Shown: positions 45,650 through 60,872, counted from the stretch's first letter. The stretch: DNA of 64,000 nt from Gammaproteobacteria bacterium (GCA_030148865.1 JASBSR010000040.1:62518-126517), one strand, 5' to 3'. The notes: generated from the letters alone by a model not told the origin. Numbers and translations: made by a program.

Positions 45650-46855
45650 ATGTTCCGACTCAGTCAGTATTTAAACGCGATTAATAATAAAAAGTCGTCA
45701 CCCCCCAGGCAGGAGCCGACCGGCCCGGTAGTCATCTGGAATTTAATCCGCCGCTGTAATCTCACCTGTAAACACTGTTATGCCACCTCGGCTGATAAAA
45801 ATTTTCCGGGGGAGCTGAGTACCCAGGAGATTTACACCGTCATGCAAAACCTGCATGATTTTGGCGTACGCGTGCTGATACTCTCTGGTGGCGAGCCACT
45901 GATGCGACCTGATATTTTTGCAATCTCGCAACATGCAAAAGCCATGGGGTTTTACCTCGGATTGTCGACTAATGGAACGCTGATTGATGAACACAATATT
46001 GATGAAATTGTTAAGGTTGGCTACAACTACGTCGGCATTAGTATTGATGGCATGCGTGAAACCCATGACAGATTCAGACGCAAACTCGGTTCTTACGATG
46101 CTGCATTGCGCGGTATTCGGCTGTGTCATGCCGCGGGCATTAAGATTGGTCTGCGTTTTACCCTGACCCAGGATAACCAGCACGAATTACCTGATCTACT
46201 GCAACTGATGGACGATGAATGCGTGGATAAATTTTATTTATCACATCTTAATTATGCTGGTCGCGGCAACAAAAACCGGCGTGATGACCTGCACCACCAG
46301 ATGACCCGCAGGGCGATGAATCTGCTCTTTAAGACCTGTTGGCAGGATACGCAAAATAACCGGCAACGCGAGTTTGTCACCGGCAACAATGATGCCGATG
46401 GCGTCTACCTGTTGCTCTGGGTGCGTAAACACATGCCAGCACATGCCGACTATCTGGAAACTATGCTTATGCGCTGGGGGGGCAATTCATCCGGCGTCAA
46501 TATTTCCAATATCGATAACCTTGGTAACGTGCACCCCGACACCATGTGGTGGGAGTACACCATTGGTAATGTTAAACAACGTACTTTTTCCGATATCTGG
46601 ATGGACACCAGCAACCCATTAATGGCAGGACTGAAACACCAGCAGCGCCCGGTAGAAGGCCGCTGCGTAGACTGCATTTACCGTCAGATTTGTGGTGGTA
46701 ACACACGCACACGTGCCTGGCAACTCACCGGTAACTTCTGGGCGGAAGATCCGGGCTGTTATTTAAACAATGAAGAAATCGGTGTCGATATTGAGCAACA
46801 GCGTTTACAATTACAACCGTGGTCACATCAGTTAAAAATCAGCCCTTCTGCGTGA
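45650..46855 (+). CDS. nirJ: NirJ, radical SAM enzyme of haem d1 biosynthesis
   Basis: 401 aa with CNLTCKHCY radical SAM motif and a C-terminal SPASM-like Cys-rich domain. Confidence 0.85.
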   Translation: MFRLSQYLNAINNKKSSPPRQEPTGPVVIWNLIRRCNLTCKHCYATSADKNFPGELSTQEIYTVMQNLHDFGVRVLILSGGEPLMRPDIFAISQHAKAMGFYLGLSTNGTLIDEHNIDEIVKVGYNYVGISIDGMRETHDRFRRKLGSYDAALRGIRLCHAAGIKIGLRFTLTQDNQHELPDLLQLMDDECVDKFYLSHLNYAGRGNKNRRDDLHHQMTRRAMNLLFKTCWQDTQNNRQREFVTGNNDADGVYLLLWVRKHMPAHADYLETMLMRWGGNSSGVNISNIDNLGNVHPDTMWWEYTIGNVKQRTFSDIWMDTSNPLMAGLKHQQRPVEGRCVDCIYRQICGGNTRTRAWQLTGNFWAEDPGCYLNNEEIGVDIEQQRLQLQPWSHQLKISPSA

Positions 46856-48414
46856 AACCAAACCGTTTTATTCTCTTTGTCATGAGCGCACTCGCAGCAG
46901 CGCCTGTCTATGCAACAGGTGACGCCAGTGAAATCTATCAACAGTATTGCGCCAGTTGCCATGGCGCAGACCGGCTCGGCATGATAGGCCCGGCTCTGTT
47001 GCCAGAAAATATGCAACGTCTGCGCAGGAATGAAGCAATTAACACCATTCGCCAGGGGCGCATTGCCACCCAGATGCCCGCCTTCGCTGACAAATTATCT
47101 GGCGAACAAATACAGTCGCTGATCGATTTAATCTACACACCGCTGGCAGCGCCCCCCCGCTGGAATCAGCAGGCGATTACAACCAGTCATGTCATTTACG
47201 AACCCGCTTTCACTCGGGGGGATGTCACCAGTGTCAAGCCGGTTTACGCGGCTGACCCGCTAAATCTATTCCTGGTGGTCGAAAGTGGTGACCACCATGT
47301 TAGTGTACTCGATGGCGACAAAATGGTACCTATCTATCGCTTTAAATCGCGTTTTGCTCTCCATGGCGGGCCCAAGTTTTCCTTCGACGGACGGTTTGTC
47401 TATTTTGCTTCACGCGACGGCTGGATCAGCAAGTTTGATATGTACACGCTGAAAACGGTGGCAGAGATACGTGCCGGAATAAATACCCGCAACCTGGCCG
47501 TATCCGCTGATGATCGTTATGTTATGGTCGCTAACACTCTGCCGCACAGCCTGGTTATACTCGATGCAGGCGATCTTAGCCTGATAAAAGTGATTCCGGT
47601 AACAGATGATTTTGGCAACAGCTCACGGGTGAGCGCAGTCTACACCGCGCCGCCGCGTAATAGCTTTATCATTGCGCTAAAAGATTTCAAAGAAGTCTGG
47701 GAGATTAATTACACTGATACACCGCCGCGAGTATTTCGCGGCCATGTCCATGATTACAAAATGGGCGAAGGCATCTCCGAGCAGGGACTATTCCCGGTAC
47801 GGCGCATTATGCTCGATGATTATCTTGATGATTTTTTCTTCGACCAGAGCTACGTAAACCTGATCGGTGCCTCACGTGGTGGTGGCAAGGGCCAGGTGGT
47901 TAATCTCATCGTTGGCAAAAAAATTGCCGATATCGACCTCCCCGGCATGCCACATCTGGGCTCAGGTATTACCTGGAAATACAAAGATACCACAGTACTG
48001 GCCACACCTAACCTCAAACAAGGCATCGTCAGCATTATTGACACTGAAACATGGCAAACTATCAAAAAGATAAAAACCGATGGCCCCGGGTTTTTTATGC
48101 GCAGCCATGAAAACTCACCCTATGCCTGGGTGGACGTGTTCGTCGGCCCCCATAGAGATGTCATGCATGTCATCGATAAAAGCACGCTGGAAATCGTCAA
48201 AACCCTGAAACCTGACCCTGGAAAAACCTCAGGGCATATCGAATTTAACCGCGATGGCAGCCGTGCTCTGCTCAGTATCTGGGAAGATGACGGTGAAGTG
48301 ATTGTATATGACAGCAAAACGCTTAAAATCGTAAAACGCCTGCCGATGCGTAAACCTGTCGGCAAATATAATGTTTATAATAAGGTCACACATTCTGAAG
48401 GCACCAGTCATTAA
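46852..48414 (+). CDS. nirN: NirN, cytochrome cd1-like dihydrohaem d1 dehydrogenase
   Basis: GTG at 46852 overlaps the nirJ stop (GTGA). Signal peptide, CASCHG haem c domain, d1-type propeller. Confidence 0.75.
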   Translation: MKPNRFILFVMSALAAAPVYATGDASEIYQQYCASCHGADRLGMIGPALLPENMQRLRRNEAINTIRQGRIATQMPAFADKLSGEQIQSLIDLIYTPLAAPPRWNQQAITTSHVIYEPAFTRGDVTSVKPVYAADPLNLFLVVESGDHHVSVLDGDKMVPIYRFKSRFALHGGPKFSFDGRFVYFASRDGWISKFDMYTLKTVAEIRAGINTRNLAVSADDRYVMVANTLPHSLVILDAGDLSLIKVIPVTDDFGNSSRVSAVYTAPPRNSFIIALKDFKEVWEINYTDTPPRVFRGHVHDYKMGEGISEQGLFPVRRIMLDDYLDDFFFDQSYVNLIGASRGGGKGQVVNLIVGKKIADIDLPGMPHLGSGITWKYKDTTVLATPNLKQGIVSIIDTETWQTIKKIKTDGPGFFMRSHENSPYAWVDVFVGPHRDVMHVIDKSTLEIVKTLKPDPGKTSGHIEFNRDGSRALLSIWEDDGEVIVYDSKTLKIVKRLPMRKPVGKYNVYNKVTHSEGTSH

Positions 48415-48449
48415 TTTGACAGCGCCACTAAACCCAAAGAAAAATTAAT

Positions 48450-49340
48450 ATGACAAACGATAAAAATGACTCTTCTGCGATAAAGATCGGACTCGCAGAA
48501 ATGCTGAAAGGTGGCGCCATCATGGATGTCACCAATGCCGAACAGGCGAAAATTGCCGAGGACGCTGGCGCCTGTGCGGTGATGGCGCTGGAGCGCATAC
48601 CGGCCGACATCCGCCGCGACGGCGGTGTCGCGCGCATGTCAGACCCTGAAATGATTCAGAATATCAAAAACACGGTGTCTATCCCGGTGATGGCAAAATG
48701 CCGTATTGGTCATTTTGCCGAAGCCCAGATCCTGCAGACACTGGAAGTCGATTTCATCGACGAGTCCGAGGTATTAACCCCGGCGGATGAAGCCAATCAT
48801 ATTTATAAACGCGACTTCAAGGTTCCTTTTGTCTGTGGCGCCACAAATCTTGGCGAAGCCCTGCGGCGCATCGGTGAAGGTGCCGCCATGATCCGCACCA
48901 AGGGCGAAGCCGGCAGCGGTAATATCGTTGAAGCCGTGCGCCACATGCGCGCCCTGCAAAATGAAATGCAACGGCTGACGACGCTCGGCAGAGAACAACT
49001 GATGGCGGTGGCCAGAGATCTGGGCGCCCCCTATGATCTGGTATGTTATGTCGCAGAGCACGGACGATTGCCGGTACCAAATTTTTCTGCGGGGGGTATC
49101 GCCACCCCTGCAGACGCCGCCCTCGTCCGTCAGCTAGGCGCAGAAGCCGTTTTTGTCGGTTCCGGTATCTTTAAATCCGAAGATCCCGAGGCACGCGCAA
49201 CGGCGATCGTGAAGGCCACTACTCACTACGACAACCCTGATATACTGCTGGAAGTGAGTCGGGGTTTACAGGCAGGAATGAAGGGGCTTGAAATGTCTGA
49301 TATTCCTGACAGCGAGCGTCTGGCTGACAGAGGCTGGTAA
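48450..49340 (+). CDS. pdxS: Pyridoxal 5'-phosphate synthase lyase subunit
   Basis: 296 aa PdxS/SNZ family ([17 protein letters not shown]...), ends ...RGW. Confidence 0.9.
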
Positions 49341-49353
49341 GCGTAGCGAGCCT

Positions 49354-49929
49354 ATGGAAAACATTGTCGGTGTGCTCGCCTTGCAGGGCGCGTATCAGAA
49401 ACACATTGATATGCTGCATGCGCTAGGTGTATCGGCACAAAGCGTACGTCAGCCACACCAGCTGACGGATTGCTCAGCATTGATCATACCCGGTGGTGAG
49501 TCAACCACCATCAGTCTGTTAATACAGGAGTACGGCTTATATGAACCGATTAAAACATTTGCAGACAGTCTTCCTGTCATGGGCGTCTGCGCAGGTCTGA
49601 TTATGCTCGCAAGTGAAGTTGATGATGTACGCATTAAGCCACTGGAATTGATGCCGTTTAAAGCCATCCGTAATCATTACGGACGGCAGCTACACAGCTT
49701 TACTGCGGATATCAAACTGAATTTCGATCACAGTAACAAGTTTTTTCATGCACCCTTTATTCGCGCACCCGGTACTACACAATTGTCACCCGAGATCGAA
49801 GTACTGGCAACACACAATGATAAGGCTGTTATGCTAAGCACAGGCCGGCATCTGGCATTATCATTTCATCCTGAATTAACCAACGACAGTCGAATTCACC
49901 AGTACTGGCTGAACAGGTTCTGCCAATAA
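49354..49929 (+). CDS. pdxT: Pyridoxal 5'-phosphate synthase glutaminase subunit
   Basis: About 192 aa from the ATG at 49354. Class I GATase (MENIVGVLALQGA, catalytic Cys in GVCAG). Confidence 0.85.
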   Translation: MENIVGVLALQGAYQKHIDMLHALGVSAQSVRQPHQLTDCSALIIPGGESTTISLLIQEYGLYEPIKTFADSLPVMGVCAGLIMLASEVDDVRIKPLELMPFKAIRNHYGRQLHSFTADIKLNFDHSNKFFHAPFIRAPGTTQLSPEIEVLATHNDKAVMLSTGRHLALSFHPELTNDSRIHQYWLNRFCQ

Positions 49930-49946: not shown

Positions 49947-50444
49947 ATGCATCCATCAAACCAGTCTACTCGATCCAGCCCCGTATTTCCGGCACTATTG
50001 TCACTGCCGTTAAAAACAATCCCCTGCTTTATACATAACCGCATGCTGGTCGCTGCGCTTAATAAAATATTTTACAAAAATCTGCAACAGGGGGAACTTG
50101 ACTTTCTAAAAAACAAGCTGGTACGCATCTTCATTGAAGATACTGGTATTGAATTTCGCATCAGCTTAAACCAGAATAAACTGATACCCGGCGACAAAGA
50201 TCAGGCTGCTGATCTTTCACTAAAAGGAACAGTGTATAACTATTTGCTACTGGCGAGTCGGCGCGAAGACACTGACACCCTGTTTTTTAGCCGCCGCCTG
50301 CAGATGCAGGGTGATACCGAACTCGGCCTGTATGTGAAAAACTTTCTTGACGGTATCGATCTGGAGTCATACAAAACCCCTGCTTATCTTGAATCAGCAT
50401 TACAAAAGTTTTTGCCTGTCTATGAGCGTCTGTTCAGGCTGTAG
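49947..50444 (+). CDS. ubiT: SCP2-domain ubiquinone biosynthesis accessory factor (UbiT/YhbT-like)
   Basis: 165 aa aligning with E. coli YhbT (FPALLSLPLKTIPCF vs GPSLLSVPVKLTPF; DTLFFSRRLQMQGDTELGLYVKN vs DTLFFQRRLVIEGDTELGLYVKN). Confidence 0.75.
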   Translation: MHPSNQSTRSSPVFPALLSLPLKTIPCFIHNRMLVAALNKIFYKNLQQGELDFLKNKLVRIFIEDTGIEFRISLNQNKLIPGDKDQAADLSLKGTVYNYLLLASRREDTDTLFFSRRLQMQGDTELGLYVKNFLDGIDLESYKTPAYLESALQKFLPVYERLFRL

Positions 50445-50557
50445 TTTTCGATTGTAATGACCGATTAATATCATCACCAGGGCAGGTATCTAATAAGCCA
50501 CTGGCCGAGGTGATTATATACCTGAACTCCAGCCTTAGATCACAACAGCGAAGTAAT

Positions 50558-51727
50558 CTAGAACCATTTAAACAGCCAGTATTTTTCAAACGCCACCTTA
50601 GCCAGGTGCAACATACGACTCGGTTGCTGGAGTTTAATTTGTGGACTGGGTTCGGCAAAGAAATTCCCACTACCGAAACCAGCCTGACCGTCACCAATTT
50701 CGACAAAACATTCACCACCGCCATCGAATGCCACCAGCCTGCCTTTATTGGTTATCACATGCGCCAGGTTGTTCGCCACCACCTCAGCCTCGCCATGGGC
50801 GAACACCCCGGCCTTAGGCAGGGGTTTGCCGATAGTAAGCGGGATATCGGTGACATCACCTATCGCATACACACCGGGGAAACGTGTTTCCAGGGTACTC
50901 CGATCAACCGGCACCCAACCAGATGACCCGGTTAAGTCGGCATCAATAACGACTTGCGGTGCTCGATGCGGCGGAACATAAACCAGAAAATCATAGCTTA
51001 CCACCGTACCATTGCTAAAAATAATGCGTTTTGTCTCAGGCTCAACCCGAGTCACAGTATGTTCGGGGTAATAATGAACATCCTTGCTTTCAACCATCTG
51101 CCGAACCTGTCCGGATACTTCTGGTCCCGCGACACCCATCGGTCCGGGCTCTGGTGTAAAAAGATCAATGCTAATACTGTCACGCACATTGCGCTGGCGA
51201 CAGTCAGACTCCAGCAACATCGCCGCTTCATAAGGTGCTGCCGGACACTTGAATGGTACGCCGCTGACCAGAACCACAAGATGCCCTTTACGAAATTCAA
51301 GCCGAGCATCACGCAAGGCTTCAGCACCAGCGAGCGTATATAAATTATGACCTGCTTCAACAAGGCCGGGCACTGTTTCCGGTATCAGTTCTGCTCCCAG
51401 TGCGATAACAAGATAATCTGCTTTGACGTCAGCGCCATTCACCTGTACCGACCTTTGTTCCGGATCAATCTTGCTAATCTCACCACGAATAAGTTCAATG
51501 CCCGTACTTTCTAATTTTGACAGCGGTCGCGAAATATTACTGGTCTTGCGTAAGCCGGTCATCAACCACAAAAATGACGGTGCAAATACAAAATTTGATT
51601 CACGTTCAGCGAGTATGACGCGATGACTGCCTAATAGTTTTTTGCGCAGGAGGCTGGCAACTGTGATACCACCTATGCCTCCACCAAGAACAAGAATTGT
51701 CTTATCCGCATTTTTGTTGATACTCAT
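50558..51727 (-). CDS. sqr: Sulfide:quinone oxidoreductase-like flavoprotein (pyridine nucleotide-disulfide oxidoreductase family)
   Basis: 389 aa. FAD motif ILVLGGGIGG, FVFAPSFLW and KCPAAPYE Cys region resembling SQR. The third SQR Cys is not evident, so the subtype is uncertain. Confidence 0.55.
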   Translation of the reverse strand: MSINKNADKTILVLGGGIGGITVASLLRKKLLGSHRVILAERESNFVFAPSFLWLMTGLRKTSNISRPLSKLESTGIELIRGEISKIDPEQRSVQVNGADVKADYLVIALGAELIPETVPGLVEAGHNLYTLAGAEALRDARLEFRKGHLVVLVSGVPFKCPAAPYEAAMLLESDCRQRNVRDSISIDLFTPEPGPMGVAGPEVSGQVRQMVESKDVHYYPEHTVTRVEPETKRIIFSNGTVVSYDFLVYVPPHRAPQVVIDADLTGSSGWVPVDRSTLETRFPGVYAIGDVTDIPLTIGKPLPKAGVFAHGEAEVVANNLAHVITNKGRLVAFDGGGECFVEIGDGQAGFGSGNFFAEPSPQIKLQQPSRMLHLAKVAFEKYWLFKWF

Positions 51728-51845
51728 AATTTTTCACGCCATTACTTATAACGCCTTCATTTTTCAGCTCGTCATCCGGCCACAGCAGCTTCAGGGCAAG
51801 CAGTACTTTTCACAACAATGATGACTTCTGGCATAACAACTTCCA

Positions 51846-52190
51846 CTAAAATACCAGGGTTTTGTTAGCATTAATTATGTGTTCTGAAAGCTCCTGCATG
51901 GTACTTCGCCGAGCGCCTTCAATCAGTTCCCCATCAATCAAACCGCGTGCGTCCATGCAGGTACCACAGACCAGCACCTCGCCCTGTCGCAGTACAGACT
52001 TGAGCATGAGTTCAAGATTGTAAAAACCCTGCGGTACTTTTTGCCCATGTTTGCCGCAGCTCACCGCATCAGCCATCAGAAATACCGTCACTTTGCAACT
52101 TTCATTACTCACCGCTTTGGCGACACGCAGGCCGTTAAAACTGCGCTCCGTGCCATAAGGCGGATCGTTAAGAATGATCAAAATATTCAT
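51846..52190 (-). CDS. YchN-like DsrE/DsrF-family protein (cytoplasmic)
   Basis: 114 aa, near-collinear with E. coli YchN (MNILIILNDPPYGTERSFNGLRVA vs MQKIVIVANGAPYGSESLFNSLRLA; LVCGTCMDARG vs KLCKTCTDGRG). Confidence 0.8.
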   Translation of the reverse strand: MNILIILNDPPYGTERSFNGLRVAKAVSNESCKVTVFLMADAVSCGKHGQKVPQGFYNLELMLKSVLRQGEVLVCGTCMDARGLIDGELIEGARRSTMQELSEHIINANKTLVF

Positions 52191-52278
52191 CTCTTTCTCC
52201 TCGTACTGGGCATTTACATCTAACGTATACTTCGAATCAAAATGATAGTGCAGTCCAATGCAGCATCAACTGTAACAG

Positions 52279-52521
52279 TTACATACTTACCATCACTGCT
52301 TTAGCATCACATTTTCTTATCTCGCCAAGCAAGACCTCCGAACTAACAGCTTCCGGGTTATAGGCCACCAGCATAATATGCGGATGTTCTTCATCATTAA
52401 AATGAACCGAAATCACGCCATCATGACTGCGCAGTCCCTGTTCGACTTTATCTCTGTCATCACACGAGCTTTCCGGGTGCAGATGAACAGTAATATCAGC
52501 AATTTTTATATCTGCATTCAT
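52279..52521 (-). CDS. Small hypothetical protein with HMA-like ferredoxin-fold pattern (no CxxC)
   Basis: About 80 aa (MNADIKI...). Beta-alpha-beta-beta-alpha-beta hydrophobic periodicity similar to HMA/TusA-sized sulfur or metal carrier domains. Single Cys (SSCDD). Confidence 0.3.
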   Translation of the reverse strand: MNADIKIADITVHLHPESSCDDRDKVEQGLRSHDGVISVHFNDEEHPHIMLVAYNPEAVSSEVLLGEIRKCDAKAVMVSM

Positions 52522-52561
52522 GATGACCTCCCGACAATTAGCTGTCATAAACTCAGTTGTT

Positions 52562-53530
52562 TTAGTGAACCACTGGCAAATTAGCCTCGATCCACTTTGT
52601 CATTCCACCACGCACAACATGTACATCATGAAAACCCTGTCTTGTTAGTAGTAATGCCGCTTTTGCAGAGCGCTTGTCAGTTCTGCACACCAGTGCAACC
52701 GGATGTTCGAGATACTCGCTTAATTCATTGAATCGACTCGGTAATTCTTCTACAGCAATATTAACTGCGCCCTCGATATGCCCCTGCTCACCAACAAAAT
52801 CATCAGCGGTACGCACATCCAGTACTAAGGTTTCATTATTATCAATACGTTTTTTTAACTCAGGAATATCAATCACCGGACCTCGTCGTATGCTCGCAAT
52901 CAAACGCGGTAAAAATGAAACTGTTGCAAGCAGGGCAAGCGCAATTAATATTTTTTGAATCAAGCCTTCGTTGCCGCCGATAGCCTCACGGCCCACGTAG
53001 CCAATGTAGGTATAGGCCACGGCGCCCGGCAACATGAACACATAGCTCGCTATCACATAATGCAACACCGAAATTCGTGTTAAGCCAAGCGCATAATTCA
53101 GCAGGTTAAAAGGAAACAATGGCATCAGCCTGACAAAGGCCACAAAACGCCAGCCTTCCGATTCCACGCCGTTAATGAGTTGTTTTACCCTGCCTCCGGT
53201 TTTTTCTTCAACCCAGCCTGAGGCAAGATAACGAGATATTAAAAATCCCAGCAAGGCTCCCAGGGTCGCCCCCGTCAGATTGTAGAATGTTCCCAGTACT
53301 GGGCCAAACAAAGCACCACCAGCAAGTGTTAACACGGATCCTGGTAAAAACAACACAGTGGCCAGCGCATACACCAGCATAAATACCACTGGCGCCAATG
53401 CGCCTGCATCATTGATCCAGGCTTCGAGTGCAGCCGCATCAAAGTGTTCTCGATAAATAATTGCTAAAACAATGCCTGCACCGAGACCCAGAATTATCAA
53501 TATACGTATCCAGCGGTTATTTTTCATCAT
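52562..53530 (-). CDS. DedA/TVP38-family membrane protein fused to a C-terminal rhodanese domain
   Basis: About 322 aa. N-terminal polytopic DedA (SNARE-associated) region. C-terminal rhodanese with active-site loop CRTDKRS. Confidence 0.7.
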   Translation of the reverse strand: MMKNNRWIRILIILGLGAGIVLAIIYREHFDAAALEAWINDAGALAPVVFMLVYALATVLFLPGSVLTLAGGALFGPVLGTFYNLTGATLGALLGFLISRYLASGWVEEKTGGRVKQLINGVESEGWRFVAFVRLMPLFPFNLLNYALGLTRISVLHYVIASYVFMLPGAVAYTYIGYVGREAIGGNEGLIQKILIALALLATVSFLPRLIASIRRGPVIDIPELKKRIDNNETLVLDVRTADDFVGEQGHIEGAVNIAVEELPSRFNELSEYLEHPVALVCRTDKRSAKAALLLTRQGFHDVHVVRGGMTKWIEANLPVVH

Positions 53531-54386
53531 TACCACTCCACTCACGACGATTAATGGCATAACTGCTTATCTTGCCAATAAACGGTAACACCAGTATGCC
53601 GTGCAGCCACGAAACCAGCCTGGGATCGTTATACTTGTGAATACCGATTGTCATATTCTCATGACCCGCGCGCGGCTGATCCCGATAAGTGCCAAATAAC
53701 CGATCCCACCAGGGCAGGTTAAAACCAAAGTTACTGTTGGCTTCATCATCTTCGACTGAATGATGCACACGATGCATATCGGGAGTAACCACGAACAGGC
53801 GCACTACTTTATCGATGCGCGCTGGAATGCGAACATTACTGTGATTGAACATAGCTGTGGCATTCAGTAGAACTTCAAAAATAATAACAGCTACTACCGG
53901 CGGCCCAAGTACCATAATGGTTGCAAATTTTATAAGCATGGACAGAATGATTTCGATGGGATGAAAACGCGCGCCAGTGGTGACATCAAAATCTATATCG
54001 GCATGATGTACCCGGTGCAGTCTCCACAGTGCTGGTACAGCATGCACCATGACGTGTTGTAGATAGATAATTAAATCCAGAGCAACAACAGAAACGATCA
54101 CTGCCAGCGGAAAAGGTGTCTGGTAATAATTCAATAGCCCCCAGCCCTGGCTACTGGCAAAGCTGGCCATGCCCACAGCTGCCGCCGGAAATAACAGACG
54201 CAGCACAACACTGTTGAGTACCACCAGACCCAGGTTATTGGCCCAGCGTACCGCTTTGGATACTCTAAGTGCACGACGCGGGGCGATGAATTCCCAGAGC
54301 GCCATGACAGCAAACACTCCCAGAAAAAAGCTGAGTCGGATAATCACCTCGTTATTGCTGACAAATTCATTCATACCCATGGCCAC
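53517..54386 (-). CDS. Fatty acid hydroxylase / sterol desaturase superfamily membrane protein
   Basis: 289 aa with His-box motifs HRVHH (twice) and HxxHH on a polytopic membrane core. Confidence 0.7.
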   Translation of the reverse strand: MAMGMNEFVSNNEVIIRLSFFLGVFAVMALWEFIAPRRALRVSKAVRWANNLGLVVLNSVVLRLLFPAAAVGMASFASSQGWGLLNYYQTPFPLAVIVSVVALDLIIYLQHVMVHAVPALWRLHRVHHADIDFDVTTGARFHPIEIILSMLIKFATIMVLGPPVVAVIIFEVLLNATAMFNHSNVRIPARIDKVVRLFVVTPDMHRVHHSVEDDEANSNFGFNLPWWDRLFGTYRDQPRAGHENMTIGIHKYNDPRLVSWLHGILVLPFIGKISSYAINRREWSGNDEK

Positions 54387-54490
54387 CCTCTTTACGGTTA
54401 ACTGGCATTCAGTCCAGATTTTCTGCTATCATAATAATTCGCAAGTATTCAATAGAGTACTTGAATAGTATCTTAATACGATTAACTGTA

Positions 54491-55159
54491 ATGTCAATAG
54501 TCAATTTCAAACATGATCTGTTCGCCCAGTTCGCCCGTGTGGCCAAAGCGCTGAGCAATGCTAACCGGCTGGAATTAATGGAATTTCTGGCGCAGGGCGA
54601 ACGCAGTGTAGACGCCCTCGCCGAGGTCTCGGGGCTGAGCGTGGCCAATACTTCACAACATTTACAGCAGCTCAGACAGACCGGTCTGGTGCTGTCACGC
54701 AAGCAGGGTCTCAAAGTCTACTATCGGCTCTCGGGTGATGATGTGATAGCACTGCTGGACAGCCTGCGCAGTGTGGCCGAAGCGCGAATGGCCGAAATCG
54801 ATCGGCTCATCAACGCTTACCTGACGATCAAGGACAAACTGGAGCCCATTGCCAGCGAGGAGCTACTGCAACGTGTCAAAGACGGTCTGGTGACGGTGAT
54901 CGATGTGCGTCCTGCGGAAGAATATAAAGCCGGCCATCTCAAGGGTGCGATTAATATCCCCCTGACTGAGCTCGACAGCCAGCTCGAAAAACTGGGCAAG
55001 GAGAAAGAAGTCATCGCTTACTGCCGCGGCCCGCATTGCGTGCTGGCGTATGATGCGGTTGCACGCCTGCGCAAAAAGGGTCGCACAGCACGCCGCCTGG
55101 AAGGTGGCTATCCTGAATGGCGGGTTGCTGGCCTGCCGGTGGAAACGTCAGATAAATAA
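54491..55159 (+). CDS. ArsR-family HTH transcriptional regulator fused to a rhodanese domain
   Basis: About 222 aa from the ATG at 54491. ArsR wHTH (LSNANRLELMEFLAQGERSVDALAEVSGLSVANTSQHLQQLRQTGLV). C-terminal rhodanese with CRGPHCV active-site loop. Confidence 0.75.
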   Translation: MSIVNFKHDLFAQFARVAKALSNANRLELMEFLAQGERSVDALAEVSGLSVANTSQHLQQLRQTGLVLSRKQGLKVYYRLSGDDVIALLDSLRSVAEARMAEIDRLINAYLTIKDKLEPIASEELLQRVKDGLVTVIDVRPAEEYKAGHLKGAINIPLTELDSQLEKLGKEKEVIAYCRGPHCVLAYDAVARLRKKGRTARRLEGGYPEWRVAGLPVETSDK

Positions 55160-55387
55160 TGGAGACGAATAAAAATTATCTGCTCCGAAAAAACTATAAA
55201 CCCGCCGCAAATAACGCAAAAAGATATTGGTCGGGTTTTACCTTCGCCTCCTTGGCGCAGCTTGTGGAAAATATTTTGTTTTTTAAGGTAAGCTCACTGT
55301 CAATCCCGAGCAATAGCGAAGGGATCTCATGCTTCAGTGGTGAAAGATTCCTCTTCGCATAAAACGCTCATCAGGATGACAGAATCC

Positions 55388-55667
55388 GTCCTGTCATCCT
55401 GAGCTGCTTTTGTGAAGGATCTCATGCCCTGATGGTCATAAGTTTTTTCTCCCACAGAATGCTTATCAGAATAATAAATCGGATAATCAAAAAATAATTA
55501 GTCCGCAAACAATGCAAATGAATGCGAATCAAAAAATATTAATTATCATGCTATGAAAATGCCAGGTTTACGAACATAAAACCCGACCAATATCTTTTTA
55601 CCTTATTTGTGTCTGGCTTATAATTTTTACTTTTGCTCGCATTCATTTGCATTGGTTGTGGACTCAT
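55388..55667. repeat. Intergenic repeat family, copy B (MITE-like, with about 34-bp inverted repeats)
   Basis: Perfect hairpin tcaggatgacag-aatccgtc-ctgtcatcctga (55383-55414). S1 segment gtgaaggatctc...gcttatcagaat. S2 gtccgcaaacaatgcaaatgaatgcgaatcaaaa (55511-55544) and its inverted copy (55634-55667, about 30 of 34 matching). Confidence 0.45.
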
Positions 55668-55685
55668 GTTTTTCAATATACCGGG

Positions 55686-57349
<1,664 letters not shown>

Positions 57350-57353
<4 letters not shown>

Positions 57354-57952
57354 GACAGCAACTTTAGAAAAGTTTTATCCGGCGGTGGTCGCGGAAAACC
57401 CGGTACATGCTGCAACCACTTCCAGCCAGCCATATCAGTATTACCGCCATAAACAGGGTCTGTTAACAAAGCTTCAACAATGTACAATAATACTGTCGAC
57501 AGCCAGTTCTCACCAGCTTCGCTGCTGGCAATACGTCGCAATACCTTTTCACGTTTAGCATCGGGTAACACAATAAATGAAGCCTTATACATTTGTTGTG
57601 CGATGCCTTCCAGCCAGCCTGAGCCTTTGATGATAAACTCACGACTCTCACTGTCTAGCGTGGTGTCTGTCATGACAAATTTTAAATAGCTCAGGGCATT
57701 GATGTCACGCGCACCCGGTGCGTTCGTTTCGACAGGAAACAGATGTTGCTGAACGCTGTCTATCACCAACCATGAATCAGAGATCTCCAGCTTATTCGTA
57801 GCAGCATGAGATGCCATAGAAAACATCGTCGCCAGGCTACCACCGGCAGCGGCCAGCAAAAATCGACGGCGCGTTATCAAAGACTGGTGCCCGCCTGATA
57901 ACAGACCGATCGAACAGGATGATCTGTCCAACGGGCGTTGTTTACGATTCAT
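57350..57952 (-). CDS. Tat-signal small subunit (gluconate 2-dehydrogenase subunit 3 family) partnering the GMC oxidoreductase
   Basis: About 200 aa from the ATG at 57952. Twin-arginine motif TRRRFLLAAAGGSLA. Overlaps the GMC gene start by 4 nt. Confidence 0.6.
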
Positions 57953-57968
57953 TATCAATACCTGAAAT

Positions 57969-58895
57969 TCAGGTAGCACCTGTTCGGCTAAAATAACGCA
58001 ATCTGTATAATAGACGTTTGTTTTCATCATTATCTTCAAAACCTGACCGATCATGCAATACATTATTACTCACCAGTCCCTGACCAGGCTGAAGTGTAGC
58101 GCGATAAATATAAGTGGATGATGAATGTAGATATTCAGTCAGTACTTTCAATGCGGCCTGTGTTACTGCATCATCTTTCCATTCAATGCTGTGTGTGCGC
58201 GCCGTATAGCGCATATGTAAATGACCGTCCGACATCACGGAAAACACTGGACCGGAGCGCTGCGGTCGGAGTTCCTTACCATGATTTATATTCGCCGGAA
58301 TGGTCATTGCATCCCCCATTGATAATACTCGAATAAAATCCGGGTTATAATCGCGCAGGTGGATATACGCCAGCTCATGATCCAGCAAAGCATTCTCGCC
58401 GCCACTTGCCGCAGGAGTTACGCAATGCAGGAACAGCGCACCAATTTGTTGATTGAGTGAATTATAGTAGCCGTCTGTGTGCCAGTGTATAGGTTTATTA
58501 GTGTAGGGAATATACGCATCACGCCAGTCACCTGAAACCACGGTTAGCGATGTTACACCCTCTTCTGAACCCGCATTATCATCCAGCTCAGTCAGACCAA
58601 ACTGTTCACCGAATTTCACAGGGATGTCTTTGTCAGGATTATTGCCCGTTTTTCCCGCATAAATTGCCATATTGGTTTTAGCGACCAGAGCATGTATCGC
58701 ATTAAATTCCGCACGACTTAAAACTGCCGGGTTATTGATTTCAACGATCAGGTCTTCGATTTTTTCCGGATAGTCATCGAGTTTATTTTCTCGCCAGACC
58801 CGATAGGCCTTGTCATCATCAAGATCGAATGGATTACCATACCTGTATCGATCAGAAATTTTAGTGGTAGCATGGGTAGATGCTTTCTGTATCAT
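57969..58895 (-). CDS. TauD/TfdA-family Fe(II)/2-oxoglutarate-dependent dioxygenase
   Basis: 308 aa with the IHWHTDG (His-x-Asp) motif and a downstream His, in a TauD-like fold. Confidence 0.65.
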
Positions 58896-59821
58896 GTGGA
58901 AGATCTCTGCTTGTTCGGGTCGGCCATCATCATGCCAGCCTGTGCATGCCAGTAACCGTTACATGCACCTGACATAATGTATTGCTGAAGAATAGTATCA
59001 GCCTCACTGGCGGTAACCTGTCCCTGCAAATGTCTGTCAAAAGTCTTAATAATCTGTTCTGTATTATTTGACTGTGGGCTGATGCGTAATACATCTATGC
59101 CAAGATCGATAAAATCATCCACATCCCGAATCAGATTATGAGTTTTTGCTGACTGTGTCTGGATGCCATTGAGAACAAGAAACGACTCATCCTCTCGGGT
59201 GCGTAGCATGAGTCCATCTGGATAGTCCAGACACCTGAACTGGCAATCATCTTTGGCCAGATTGTGTGCACGTGCGGTAAAACATCTGGCCGAATAAGCC
59301 AGTGGCAGCCTGCCAAACACAAACACTTCTGTTTCAATCCCCTCGGGACGATTCTGGTGAAGCTCTATCAATGTCGCTTTTGATAACTCGACGGGCAGTG
59401 TCCAGCGCTGCAAGCCAAGTTTTGTCAGCACTGATAAAGTCTGTGAGTTATAAATATTGAGCGCGGGTCCTGTCACAAATGAGGTTTTACCAGACATCAT
59501 CTGTACTCCGGCCATATCATTGGCTTCCACCAGATATTGATTATTGCTGCAGATTTTTCTCAGTGTGCTCAGTTCAGAGCCTGCCTCCAGCAAGGTCAGC
59601 GTTGACAACGCCACCTGCTTACCTGACTGTTGCAACATGATGGCCAGCTGCAGCCAGTCATCAAGACGCATGACACGGCGCTTTGAACACACGGTTTCAC
59701 CCAGATAAATAATGTCTACCGGCGTTTTTGCAATACCTTCATAAAACCTGAACACGTCTTCACGCGGCCAGAAATAAAGGATTGGCCCGAGTGAAAGCTT
59801 TGGCCTGAATTTATTTAACAT
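58892..59821 (-). CDS. ubiV: U32-family peptidase-like protein, UbiV-type (O2-independent ubiquinone hydroxylation)
   Basis: 309 aa U32 family, smaller partner located directly downstream of the larger U32 gene. Conserved Cys present. Confidence 0.65.
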
Positions 59822-59876
59822 TTTTTATACCCGACAGAAACATTCGGATACAGGCTTTTCACGTTTCGTTTATTCA

Positions 59877-60872
59877 TCACTGCCACGGTCGATGATAAGC
59901 GCCCAGTGTGGTTTGCGAACCTTCTGATACTTTCTCAAGCACTGACAACCACGCTGAATCTACTTTGAAAGTATCAGGATTTTTTAGACAGGCATCAATC
60001 GCAGCACGCCATACTGTTGTCACCTGCGCAACATAGGCCGGACTACGCTGGCGACCTTCGATTTTAATTGCTGCCACACCGACAGATTGTAATTTTGGCA
60101 ATATTGCCAGAGTATTCAGGCTGGTGGGTTCTTCAATCGCGTAATAAGTATTGTTAGCAACATTAAAACGCCCTTTACACAACGTCGGATAGCCGGCCGA
60201 TTCTCCCACAGCATGGCGATCGATCAGCACATGGTTAAGCCGTGTCTCAAGTCCATCCGGAGTTTCTGTCCAGCTAACCGCATTTGCTGGTGAACAGGCA
60301 CCAAAGGTATTGGGCGAACGACCGGTCACATACGAAGACAACATACAACGCCCTTCTACCATGACACAGAGGCTACCAAAGCCAAATACCTCAATCGGTA
60401 CCGGGCTGGTCTGCGCCACGCGTTCCACCTGCCTGAGCGATAACACGCGCGGCAGAACAACGCGCTGAATGGAAAAGTTTTGCTGATAAAACGCAATCGC
60501 TTCTGCGCTGGTGGCTGATGCCTGTACGGATAAATGCAGGCGAAGCTTGGGCCAACGATGATGTGCATATTCCATCACACCAGTATCAGCAAGAATGAGT
60601 GCATCAACCCCAAGATCAGCTGCATGATCAACTGATCGTTGCCAACGAGACCAGCCAGAATCCTGTGGATAGGTGTTGATCGCAACAAATACTTTCACCG
60701 CATGATCATGTGCATAACGAATACCTTCCTCGGCACGTGCTTCATTAAAATTCAGACCTGCAAAATGCCGCGCATTGGTATCGTCACAAAAACCCATATA
60801 AACTGCACTGGCACCGTTATCCACAGCCGCTTTGAGCGATGGTAAATTACCTGCAGGACAAACAAGTTCCAT
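59877..60872 (-). CDS. ubiU: U32-family peptidase-like protein, UbiU-type
   Basis: 331 aa U32 family (MELVCPAGNLPSLKAAVDNGASAVYMG...) with conserved Cys for an FeS cluster. Confidence 0.65.
   Translation of the reverse strand: MELVCPAGNLPSLKAAVDNGASAVYMGFCDDTNARHFAGLNFNEARAEEGIRYAHDHAVKVFVAINTYPQDSGWSRWQRSVDHAADLGVDALILADTGVMEYAHHRWPKLRLHLSVQASATSAEAIAFYQQNFSIQRVVLPRVLSLRQVERVAQTSPVPIEVFGFGSLCVMVEGRCMLSSYVTGRSPNTFGACSPANAVSWTETPDGLETRLNHVLIDRHAVGESAGYPTLCKGRFNVANNTYYAIEEPTSLNTLAILPKLQSVGVAAIKIEGRQRSPAYVAQVTTVWRAAIDACLKNPDTFKVDSAWLSVLEKVSEGSQTTLGAYHRPWQ

Follow-up and report, generated by a model that had tools for sequence, protein, structure and literature searches.

The DNA analysed here (hereafter the window) is a stretch of 64,000 nucleotides, one strand, from a Gammaproteobacteria bacterium (GCA_030148865.1 JASBSR010000040.1:62518-126517). 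Positions 50558-55159 contain six genes, five of which lie on the minus strand as one operon (54380 to 50558). The sixth gene, on the plus strand, encodes a regulator in which an ArsR/SmtB winged helix is fused to a rhodanese domain. In order of transcription, the operon encodes a membrane protein of the fatty acid hydroxylase family (FAH), a VTT/DedA-domain protein with a C-terminal rhodanese domain (VTT-rhodanese), an 80-residue protein with the fold of heavy-metal-associated (HMA) domains, a YchN-like DsrE-family protein and a flavoprotein resembling sulfide:quinone oxidoreductase (SQR). Comparison with orthologous loci firmly supports the regulator and operon as a genuine conserved unit. 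The regulator is proposed to be a repressor that senses sulfane sulfur through its rhodanese domain, which would then be a new type of sensor module; we give this proposal about an even chance of being correct.

An initial annotation of the window had listed the SQR-like, DsrE, small-protein, VTT/DedA-rhodanese and ArsR-rhodanese genes, all of which were found at the positions given in Table 1. Its list lacked the FAH gene, with which the operon begins and which, of all partners of the regulator, is the most conserved. It had also placed the DsrE, small-protein and VTT-rhodanese genes downstream of sqr; on the transcribed minus strand they lie upstream, and sqr is last. The ArsR-rhodanese gene is divergently placed, as had been described, and the gene from which it diverges is that for FAH, not sqr.

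The putative ArsR-type repressor fused to a rhodanese domain with the loop CRGPHCV was confirmed as annotated, with matches to Pfam HTH_5 (37 bits, cut-off 22) and Rhodanese and to the NCBIfam model HTH_metalloreg NF033788 (78 bits, cut-off 55). An AlphaFold2 (AF2) model of the regulator (33 orthologues, pLDDT 70.9) comprised helices alpha1-alpha4, a beta wing, an alpha5 helix of 35 residues (82-116) and then the rhodanese domain (120-210). The recognition helix NTSQHLQQL was invariant among the 33 orthologues. The regulator has only two cysteines, Cys178 and Cys183, both of which are in the rhodanese loop CRGPHC and both of which were invariant in the same orthologues. There is no cysteine in residues 1-177, which include the ArsR domain. 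None of the known ArsR inducer sites (the alpha3 CXC motif, the alpha5 site and the alpha2/alpha5 pair of SqrR and BigR) is present in the regulator, and the region matching alpha3 reads LELMEFLAQGERSV. In alignments with the rhodanese domains of 3tp9 (CstB-like), NPSR (3nta) and CoADR-Rhd, Cys178 matched the catalytic cysteine. The same loop type, CWGPAC, occurs in BH2092 (3nhv), an uncharacterised structural-genomics protein. A Cdc25/Acr2-type CX5R loop was rejected for the regulator, in which valine follows CRGPHC and there is no arginine at +6.

Searches of 1.84 billion representative proteins at E <= 1e-30 returned 477 clusters (50% identity), mostly full-length matches at 40-57% identity. 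The motif YCRGxxC was kept by approximately 100 of the 127 representatives that are full-length (40-57% identity), and in most of them the number of cysteines is exactly two. Members of the family were found in Proteobacteria, Actinomycetota, Bacillota and Deinococcota, and on at least 198 plasmids, many of them from food lactic acid bacteria. Since the ArsR domain lacks cysteine and the loop cysteines are invariant and kept across the family, sensing via the rhodanese domain would be the natural reading of this architecture. Three long proteins (P0121, 2327 aa; P0191, 1654 aa; P0199, 1197 aa) contained 8-16 rhodanese-like stretches matching the rhodanese domain of the regulator.

The intergenic region between the divergent FAH and regulator genes is 110 nt long and contains the palindrome TATTCAA-N8-TTGAATA, whose sole perfect match in the window is at 54446-54467. 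Partial matches with two mismatches or fewer numbered seven in the window against 4.4 expected, which is chance level, and a second operator elsewhere in the 64 kb was rejected for that reason. Conservation was assessed in 80 loci from species-representative genomes with an orthologous regulator (67-80% identity); promoters and operators were compared in an alignment of 61 of the orthologous intergenic regions. Of the 14 specified bases of the palindrome, at least 13 were kept in 56 of the 61 regions, and in the great majority of the regions it ended 23 nt before the regulator ATG. Across all 80 loci (984 kb), 85 sites with at least 12/14 matches were found, and a site lay immediately upstream of the regulator in 79 loci, in line with the earlier expectation of an operator at the regulator's own gene. 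Alphaproteobacterial plasmid homologues (approximately 50% identity) are preceded by CATTCAA-N8-TTGAATG, with the core ATTCAA-N8-TTGAAT in common. The operator expected upstream of sqr (51728-51845) was not found: the best match there was no higher than 8/14, no better one was present in the corresponding regions of loci L033, L044 and L070, and the sole operator of the window is that in the FAH/regulator intergenic region. In two of these three loci, the apparent gap before sqr actually houses the small HMA-like gene. Two further SQR-bearing loci (L112 and L115, one of which is from Ca. Tenderia electrophaga) contain a pair of perfect palindromes separated by approximately 30-40 nt, against a single one in the window.

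On the minus strand, a -35 element TTGACA (54497-54492), a 16-nt spacer and a -10 element TAAGAT (54475-54470) constitute the best sigma-70-like site of the region (10/12). The -35 element overlaps the regulator start codon, and the -10 element ends 2 nt from the palindrome. The pattern TTGACR-N15-18-TAnnnT was found at the same position in 49 of the 61 aligned regions. Read on the other strand, the conserved start of the regulator's coding sequence (ATG TCA A.., 54491-54497) supplies the -35 TTGACA of this divergent promoter. On the plus strand, an extended -10 element, GCTATAAT or GCTATACT, precedes the palindrome by 15-18 nt in the majority of the 61 regions; the corresponding element of the window, TGCTATCATAAT, departs from this consensus. 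By these comparisons the putative operator is firmly defined. Two promoters face each other across it, with both predicted start sites at or immediately before it, and from this geometry one bound dimer could block both promoters. The regulator start was taken as the ATG at 54491, as annotated on an identical public contig, and the sequence ATGTCAA at this start is kept at a fixed distance from the operator in the orthologous intergenic regions. The earlier choice of TTG 54461 was rejected, there being no public gene product with that sequence.

Of the 80 loci, 60 have FAH beside the regulator, 43 have VTT-rhodanese, 22 have DsrE, 7 have the small protein and 3 have SQR; contig ends truncate many of the remaining loci. 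Judged from these orthologous neighbourhoods, the gene arrangement is not due to chance. In loci that lack FAH, the operator faces the gene for VTT-rhodanese, DsrE or a NapH-like/GltD-like fusion protein. The hosts are sulfur-oxidising Gammaproteobacteria (Thiohalobacter, Sedimenticola, Thiogranum, Sulfuriflexus, Thiodiazotropha and Chromatiaceae), together with the symbionts of Riftia, Lamellibrachia and Escarpia. Reciprocal look-ups gave the same association: FAH orthologues chosen for long contigs were opposite an ArsR-rhodanese gene in 4/4 cases (two look-ups), and 5/5 SQR orthologues were in ArsR-rhodanese operons. The SQR-like enzyme can thus be assigned firmly, by gene neighbourhood, as a habitual member of ArsR-rhodanese regulons. 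The gene order in Ca. Tenderia electrophaga is FAH-VTTrhd-DsrE-x-SQR, as in the window. Metagenomic loci L114 and L116 have DsrE, SQR, a metallo-beta-lactamase-family (MBL) protein and a major facilitator superfamily (MFS) protein, in this order, under an ArsR-rhodanese gene. The MBL protein of these loci is 47% identical to an Acidiphilium MBL protein, the best PDB matches of which are CstB, bacterial persulfide dioxygenase (PDO) and ETHE1. In a Sulfuricaulis sp. locus (L113, 8349-14524), the SQR gene is followed directly by a YeeE/YedE-like Sulf_transp gene, selD, selB, selA and tusA, which places genes for selenium utilisation next to the regulon.

Annotated neighbourhoods were surveyed for 20 of the 198 plasmids encoding a homologue. 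MBL (CstB-like persulfide dioxygenase) and MFS genes were found in 10/20, four of which also had DsrE. With the 5/5 result for SQR orthologues, this favours the linkage to sulfur genes that the initial annotation had assumed. A sterol desaturase gene was found in 3/20 plasmids, with a VTT gene directly after it in Roseibium, further off in Sulfitobacter and none listed in Thioclava; a cysteine desulfurase gene was found in 2/20. On Lactiplantibacillus plasmids the partners are thioredoxin, TrxB and DsbA. Resistance islands for mercury, copper or other metals surround many of the plasmid neighbourhoods.

At the 80 loci, the co-directional string extends through overlapping or very short junctions into variable modules. 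These comprised a NapH-GltD fusion with hydroxylamine oxidoreductase (HAO)-like and other multihaem cytochromes (approximately 18 loci); a methyltransferase, ArsS, a family 2 glycosyltransferase (GT2), DUF2064 and ArsM (approximately 15 loci); a MerA-like class I disulfide reductase with a cytochrome (13 loci); a SoxH-like MBL protein (8 loci); CzcCBA (5 loci); an MMPL, LolA-like and DUF1302 lipid-export trio (4 loci); and TauE with cysteine desulfurase (3-4 loci). Genes for TauE, cysteine desulfurase and the SoxH-like MBL protein recur in the loci of sulfur oxidisers. The arsenic-related assignments scored above the NCBIfam cut-offs (ArsM 371 bits against 263, ArsS 446 against 300, TIGR04283 GT2 287 against 182). 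ArsS, TIGR04283 GT2, DUF2064 and ArsM genes are joined to those for FAH, VTT-rhodanese and DsrE in L069, L014, L076, L049, L033 and L108, and such arsenosugar-type strings occur in free-living relatives of chemosynthetic symbionts. The fusion of a NapH-like polyferredoxin with a GltD-like NAD(P)H flavoprotein (770-850 aa) is under the same operator and at times faces the regulator (L063, L066, L067, L048 and L058; also L006, L010, L017, L027, L028, L042, L047 and L062). It is followed by a monohaem cytochrome, a multihaem cytochrome resembling HAO or hydrazine dehydrogenase, and another multihaem cytochrome. The 64-kb window contains no true homologue of the arsenic or NapH-GltD/cytochrome modules.

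The flavoprotein matched Pfam Pyr_redox_2 (85 bits, cut-off 26) and FCSD_central, and has the N-terminal motif VLGGGIGG of an FAD-binding Rossmann fold. The top PDB relatives were all SQRs, with E values from 1.5e-34 to 6e-28 (human SQOR 1.5e-34, Aquifex 5.7e-32, Acidithiobacillus approximately 1e-29). Values for other flavoproteins were 3e-23 for flavocytochrome c sulfide dehydrogenase (FCSD), approximately 1e-6 for NDH-2 and 8e-4 for CoA-disulfide reductase (CoADR). Identity as NDH-2 or CoADR was rejected on these values against 1e-34 to 1e-29 for the SQRs. Cys161 and Cys340 aligned by HMMER with the catalytic Cys201 and Cys379 of human SQOR (fkCpaaP opposite vkCagaP, and gggeCfv opposite gytsCpl), and FKCPAAP is kept in the three SQR orthologues of L033, L044 and L070. 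The SQR-like identity proposed for this gene therefore held, on both the PDB E values and the two aligned catalytic cysteines. The best NCBIfam model was that of type III SQR (NF049943; E 2.2e-70, full length, 237.6 bits). The protein resembles type III SQRs in this full-length match and in having both redox cysteines; it differs in scoring below the 525-bit cut-off of the model, which is specific to a selenoprotein subtype and is the sole type III model available. The flavoprotein is accordingly described as type III-like rather than typed, with predicted SQR activity. Orthologues at 65-79% identity are abundant and carry the JGI name sulfide:quinone oxidoreductase. As read from the sequence, the C-terminal stretch (...HLAKVAFEKYWLFKWF) is rich in aromatic residues and apparently amphipathic.

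The DsrE protein scored 80.5 bits against the Pfam DsrE cut-off of 22.7. Its sole PDB match was E. coli YchN (1jx7, E 1.7e-19), with which C75-x-x-C78...RG aligned. The motif CG(T/A)CMDARG is kept in 16/22 orthologues, and the TusD/DsrE equivalog model gave 27.5 bits against a cut-off of 89. By these matches the protein belongs with YchN, in agreement with the earlier description as a YchN/DsrE-family protein; it lacks a signal peptide. The 80-residue protein had no Pfam or NCBIfam match. Its AF2 model (pLDDT 84.7) had the topology beta-alpha-beta-beta-alpha-beta and matched HMA domains (CopZ, MerP) in Foldseek at template modelling (TM) scores of 0.6-0.65. The HMA metal site GMxCxxC was looked for and not found: the protein has no CxxC and no Pfam HMA match, and its only cysteines are the isolated Cys20 and Cys71. 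Its gene follows that for VTT-rhodanese in 7 loci and immediately precedes the SQR gene in L033 and L044.

VTT-rhodanese matched Pfam VTT_dom (84 bits, cut-off 34) and Rhodanese (69 bits). Against E. coli, its VTT domain was most similar to YdjX (35% identity, E 8e-31) and YdjZ (33%, E 7e-20). It is thus placed by similarity in the YdjX/TVP38 (COG0398) subfamily of the DedA superfamily. DedA/YqjA (COG0586) identity was rejected, with E 0.043 for DedA against 8e-31 for YdjX. The last transmembrane helix is followed by RRG...KKR, and because of this positive stretch the rhodanese domain would face the cytoplasm. The membrane transport coupled to sulfur transfer that the initial annotation suggested for this fusion is at most a hypothesis. 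The loop CRTD(K/R)(R/K)S or a close variant was present in most of 33 full-length orthologues. An independent VTT(COG0398)-rhodanese neighbourhood occurs in E. coli K-12 (NC_000913.3, 1833401-1840774; L103), where the YdjX-type VTT genes ydjX and ydjZ are within the ydjXYZ-ynjABCD cluster and ynjE, encoding a rhodanese sulfurtransferase, is directly after it. FAH matched Pfam FA_hydroxylase (104 bits, cut-off 31) with the histidine boxes HVMVH, HRVHH and HRVHH, and is predicted to be a membrane di-iron enzyme of the fatty-acid-hydroxylase/sterol-desaturase family. It matched no characterised subfamily, OlsE being a weak hit (92.8 bits, cut-off 475). Its orthologues, 76-86% identical over hundreds of metagenomic clusters, have at most a family-level name, 'sterol desaturase family protein'.

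SqrR/BigR-type sensors are single-domain proteins whose sensing cysteines form a pair in helices alpha2 and alpha5 (PMC9774590, PMC10054925). The regulator resembles SqrR, BigR, HlyU and YgaV in having an ArsR/SmtB winged helix encoded beside SQR, persulfide dioxygenase and membrane exporter genes, and an operator palindrome built on ATTC...GAAT half-sites. Its PDB matches included SqrR (E 1.8e-8), YgaV (E 8.8e-8) and BigR (E 1.7e-6). Unlike SqrR and BigR, it has no alpha2/alpha5 cysteine pair, its cysteines being in the fused rhodanese loop. Lacking this pair and falling below the cut-off of the NCBIfam BigR model (45.7 bits against 155), it is outside the SqrR/BigR sensor class as that class is defined. 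The regulator also resembles a fusion of the E. coli pair YgaV-YgaP (3cuo and 2moi/5hbl matched), in which the same two domains are functionally linked. In E. coli these are separate polypeptides with the rhodanese membrane-anchored, and the similarity to YgaP is weak (E 5.6e-4). To our knowledge, YgaP does not have a second loop cysteine.

ChrB joins a DNA-binding N-terminus to a rhodanese-like C-terminal domain, for which a role in effector recognition has been proposed (PMC3817168), an arrangement shared by the regulator. It differs in its DNA-binding family and its chromate inducer; no CX4C loop is reported for it, and the two are not homologous over their full length. The CstR-controlled cst operon and other SQR and PDO operons combine SQR, CstB-like PDO, rhodanese and DsrE carriers and an exporter under one sulfane-sulfur-responsive repressor, and the order DsrE-SQR-PDO-MFS under ArsR-rhodanese in L114 and L116 matches this logic. 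CstR, however, belongs to the CsoR family, and the operon of the window has FAH and VTT-rhodanese in place of a persulfide dioxygenase and an exporter. A DedA-rhodanese fusion has already been recorded, with the link between rhodanese and undecaprenyl phosphate (UndP) called 'unclear' (mBio 2023, PMC10127716). The recorded rhodanese fusions are in COG0586 (DedA/YqjA), and the common partner of COG0398 is a pyridine-nucleotide disulfide reductase (PMC10127716); the protein of the window, in contrast, is of the YdjX/TVP38 type (COG0398). A disulfide reductase of this kind is encoded by its own gene within the operon at 13 of the present loci. Rhodanese domains in ArsR-type regulators were noted by Bordo and Bork 2002, as cited in PMC3817168. 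Proteins of more than 150 residues were excluded from a 2023 similarity-network survey of ArsR proteins, and the ArsR-rhodanese family was left out of it because of this length cut-off (PMC10054925). No characterised ArsR-rhodanese fusion was found in the full-text literature; most subscription-journal papers were outside this search and prior work is possible. M. tuberculosis Rv0324 may be of this architecture.

In the proposed mechanism, the regulator would bind the palindrome through its invariant recognition helix and repress. The input would be sulfane sulfur in the form of persulfide, polysulfide or a thiosulfate-derived species. Cys178 of the rhodanese loop would pick up sulfur catalytically, and Cys183 would resolve with Cys178 into an intraloop di-, tri- or tetrasulfide. 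The change in the loop could then be relayed along the long alpha5 helix to the winged helix, and DNA would be released. From what is known of the families, derepression would supply SQR, turning sulfide into quinone-coupled sulfane sulfur, and the cytoplasmic sulfur carriers, namely the VTT-rhodanese domain and the YchN-like DsrE protein. It would also supply FAH, which with the scramblase-like VTT domain probably modifies envelope lipid; this is the least supported step. Rhodanese-based sensing of sulfane sulfur is the best-supported explanation because the link to SQR, CstB-like PDO, DsrE, TauE and cysteine desulfurase crosses phyla, the ArsR domain is cysteine-free and the CX4C loop is invariant.

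Several observations count against sulfane sulfur as the signal. SQR was present in only 3 of the 80 loci, and the conserved core of FAH and VTT-rhodanese is without known sulfur chemistry. At approximately 15 of the 80 loci the same tight string continues into genes for GT2, DUF2064 and genuine ArsM and ArsS, and genes for Czc/Cus efflux pumps, MerR/MerA, P-type ATPases and HMA proteins often lie nearby. The thioredoxin, TrxB and DsbA partners in lactic acid bacteria would be just as compatible with thiol stress in general as the signal. With arsenic-methylation and arsenosugar genes at these approximately 15 loci and metal-resistance islands common in the vicinity, sulfane sulfur is put forward as a candidate inducer only. 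The sensing proposal of the initial annotation is therefore upheld in part, by the cysteine-free ArsR domain, the invariant loop cysteines and the sulfur neighbours, and is opposed by the arsenic and metal genes at part of the loci. The linkage to arsenic or metal genes that the initial annotation had set against its own proposal was found in part, at the approximately 15 loci with arsenic strings, the five CzcCBA loci and the many loci within mercury, copper or other metal islands.

A sensor of thiophilic metals or metalloids, in which the CX4C loop would bind As(III), methylarsenite, Hg(II) or Cu(I) and the regulon would be a detoxification island, is considered unlikely. In its favour, the ArsM, ArsS, TIGR04283 GT2 and DUF2064 genes follow tightly after those for FAH and VTT-rhodanese (L069, L014, L076 and L108, among others), ArsM is directly downstream of the regulator in L027, L037 and L059, and CzcCBA is within the same string in its five loci. 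MerR/MerA/MerT, P-type ATPase and Cus genes adjoin in Tenderia and on many plasmids, and the small protein of the operon has an HMA fold. However, no recurring family annotated arsB, acr3 or arsC was found within +/-9 kb of the 80 loci, and the immediate partners elsewhere are persulfide dioxygenase, DsrE and SQR, not metal-resistance functions. Known As(III) sites of ArsR proteins take three cysteines (PMC10054925), whereas the regulator has two. The residue between the loop cysteines (H, Y or F) is not a conserved ligand, and the operon of the window itself contains no arsenic or metal gene.

It is very unlikely that the regulator is a general sensor of thiol oxidation (disulfide stress), with H2O2, HOCl, NO or diamide acting on Cys178 and Cys183 to control thiol homeostasis and envelope repair. 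Such a role would suit plasmids of Lactiplantibacillus and other lactic acid bacteria, where the homologue heads an operon of thioredoxin, TrxB, DsbA, TrxA and FAD-oxidoreductase genes, and the 13 loci with MerA-like class I disulfide reductases in the operon; FAH, moreover, requires O2. The rhodanese cysteine of E. coli YgaP is reportedly subject to S-nitrosylation. Known dithiol sensors of the ArsR family, on the other hand, tell persulfides from peroxides (PMC10054925), and the recurrent, specific pairing with SQR, persulfide dioxygenase and DsrE speaks for sulfur rather than generic oxidants.

The rhodanese loop is an anion cradle, and the domain might be a non-covalent, ChrB-like sensor of oxyanions (thiosulfate, selenite, arsenate or similar) or an enzyme unrelated to regulation. 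The response of ChrB, a transcription factor with a C-terminal rhodanese-like domain, to chromate (PMC3817168), the selD, selA, selB and YeeE-like genes flanking one locus (L113) and the weak similarity of the GltD-like partner protein to YgfK are consistent with this. It is nonetheless highly improbable, given that both cysteines are invariant over a large evolutionary distance, which argues for thiol chemistry, and that the CX5R (Cdc25/Acr2) motif is absent.

If the regulator does sense sulfane sulfur through the rhodanese domain, reactive sulfur would here be sensed in another manner, the receptor being the active site of an enzyme. SqrR, BigR and HlyU sense inside the DNA-binding domain, whereas here a cysteine-free DNA-binding domain is joined to a complete sulfurtransferase domain. 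The proposal is directly testable with the defined operator, the promoter layout, the two candidate sensor residues and the list of regulon members supplied here. The most conserved targets of the regulator would be two widespread membrane proteins, FAH and the YdjX-type VTT-rhodanese, and it also heads arsenosugar-type strings in relatives of chemosynthetic symbionts. A more specific model can be framed, although as a whole it is quite unlikely to be right: ArsR-rhodanese proteins would be 'catalytic' sensors that load themselves with sulfane sulfur (from thiosulfate, polysulfide or thioarsenate-type donors), a CX4C polysulfide bridge would release the operator, and the ancestral core would be the FAH lipid hydroxylase and YdjX-type VTT-rhodanese, not sulfide oxidation. 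Were this the case, sulfur stress would be tied to remodelling of envelope lipid or to mobilising membrane-dissolved sulfur, and the enigmatic COG0398 branch of DedA proteins would gain a function. The switch would, in addition, turn on the making of arsenosugar-type organoarsenicals in vent symbionts and the free-living bacteria related to them, and arsenic transformation would thereby be coupled to the sensing of sulfane sulfur.

Coordinates of the genes and predicted sites are collected in Table 1.

Table 1. Genes and predicted elements of the ArsR-rhodanese locus (window coordinates)
Feature	Position	Strand	Basis
FAH (FA_hydroxylase-family membrane protein, 287 aa), operon gene 1	53517-54380	-	Pfam FA_hydroxylase
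VTT/DedA domain with C-terminal rhodanese, 322 aa	52562-53530	-	Pfam VTT_dom and Rhodanese
VTT-rhodanese active-site loop C282-RTDKRS	52667-52687	-	Sole cysteine of the protein
Small HMA-fold protein, 80 aa	52279-52521	-	AF2 model and Foldseek
YchN-like DsrE-family protein, 114 aa, without signal peptide	51846-52190	-	Pfam DsrE, PDB 1jx7
SQR-like flavoprotein (type III-like), 389 aa, last operon gene	50558-51727	-	Pfam, NCBIfam, PDB
ArsR/SmtB winged-helix and rhodanese regulator, 222 aa	54491-55159	+	Pfam HTH_5 and Rhodanese
Regulator rhodanese loop C178-R-G-P-H-C183, proposed sensor site	55022-55039	+	Sequence
Putative operator palindrome TATTCAA-N8-TTGAATA	54446-54467	.	Window scan and orthologous loci
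FAH-operon promoter-like site	54470-54497	-	Sigma-70-like scan and locus alignment
Regulator extended -10-like element TGCTATCATAAT	54424-54435	+	Upstream of operator
Terminator-like hairpin (predicted), 12-bp stem, past regulator gene	55371-55402	+	Consensus scan

The gaps between successive operon genes, in order of transcription, are -14, 40, 88 and 118 nt, the first being the overlap of the FAH gene end with the VTT-rhodanese start. A consensus scan found no convincing terminators between the operon genes, and Rfam at E <= 1 found no known RNA elements in the leaders or gaps (50300-55800).

One flank of the island contains ubiT (49947-50444, plus strand; NCBIfam UbiT, 136 bits). On the other flank are two peptidase-U32 genes (58892-60872, minus strand) resembling ubiV and ubiU of the O2-independent ubiquinone pathway. 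The Thioclava plasmid likewise has its ArsR-rhodanese and sterol desaturase genes near SCP2 and U32 genes. This bracketing may be a coincidence or may reflect a tie to quinone supply for SQR under low O2. Beside the regulator (55686-58895, minus strand) are genes for a GMC oxidoreductase (555 aa), a gluconate-2-dehydrogenase subunit-3-like protein and a TauD/TfdA-family dioxygenase, which are not kept beside the regulator in other genomes. At 45650-49929 (plus strand), genes of haem d1 biosynthesis (NirJ-like radical SAM and NirN-like cytochrome cd1-family) precede those for PdxS and PdxT; the NirJ- and NirN-like genes are unrelated to the operon and indicate a denitrifying host.

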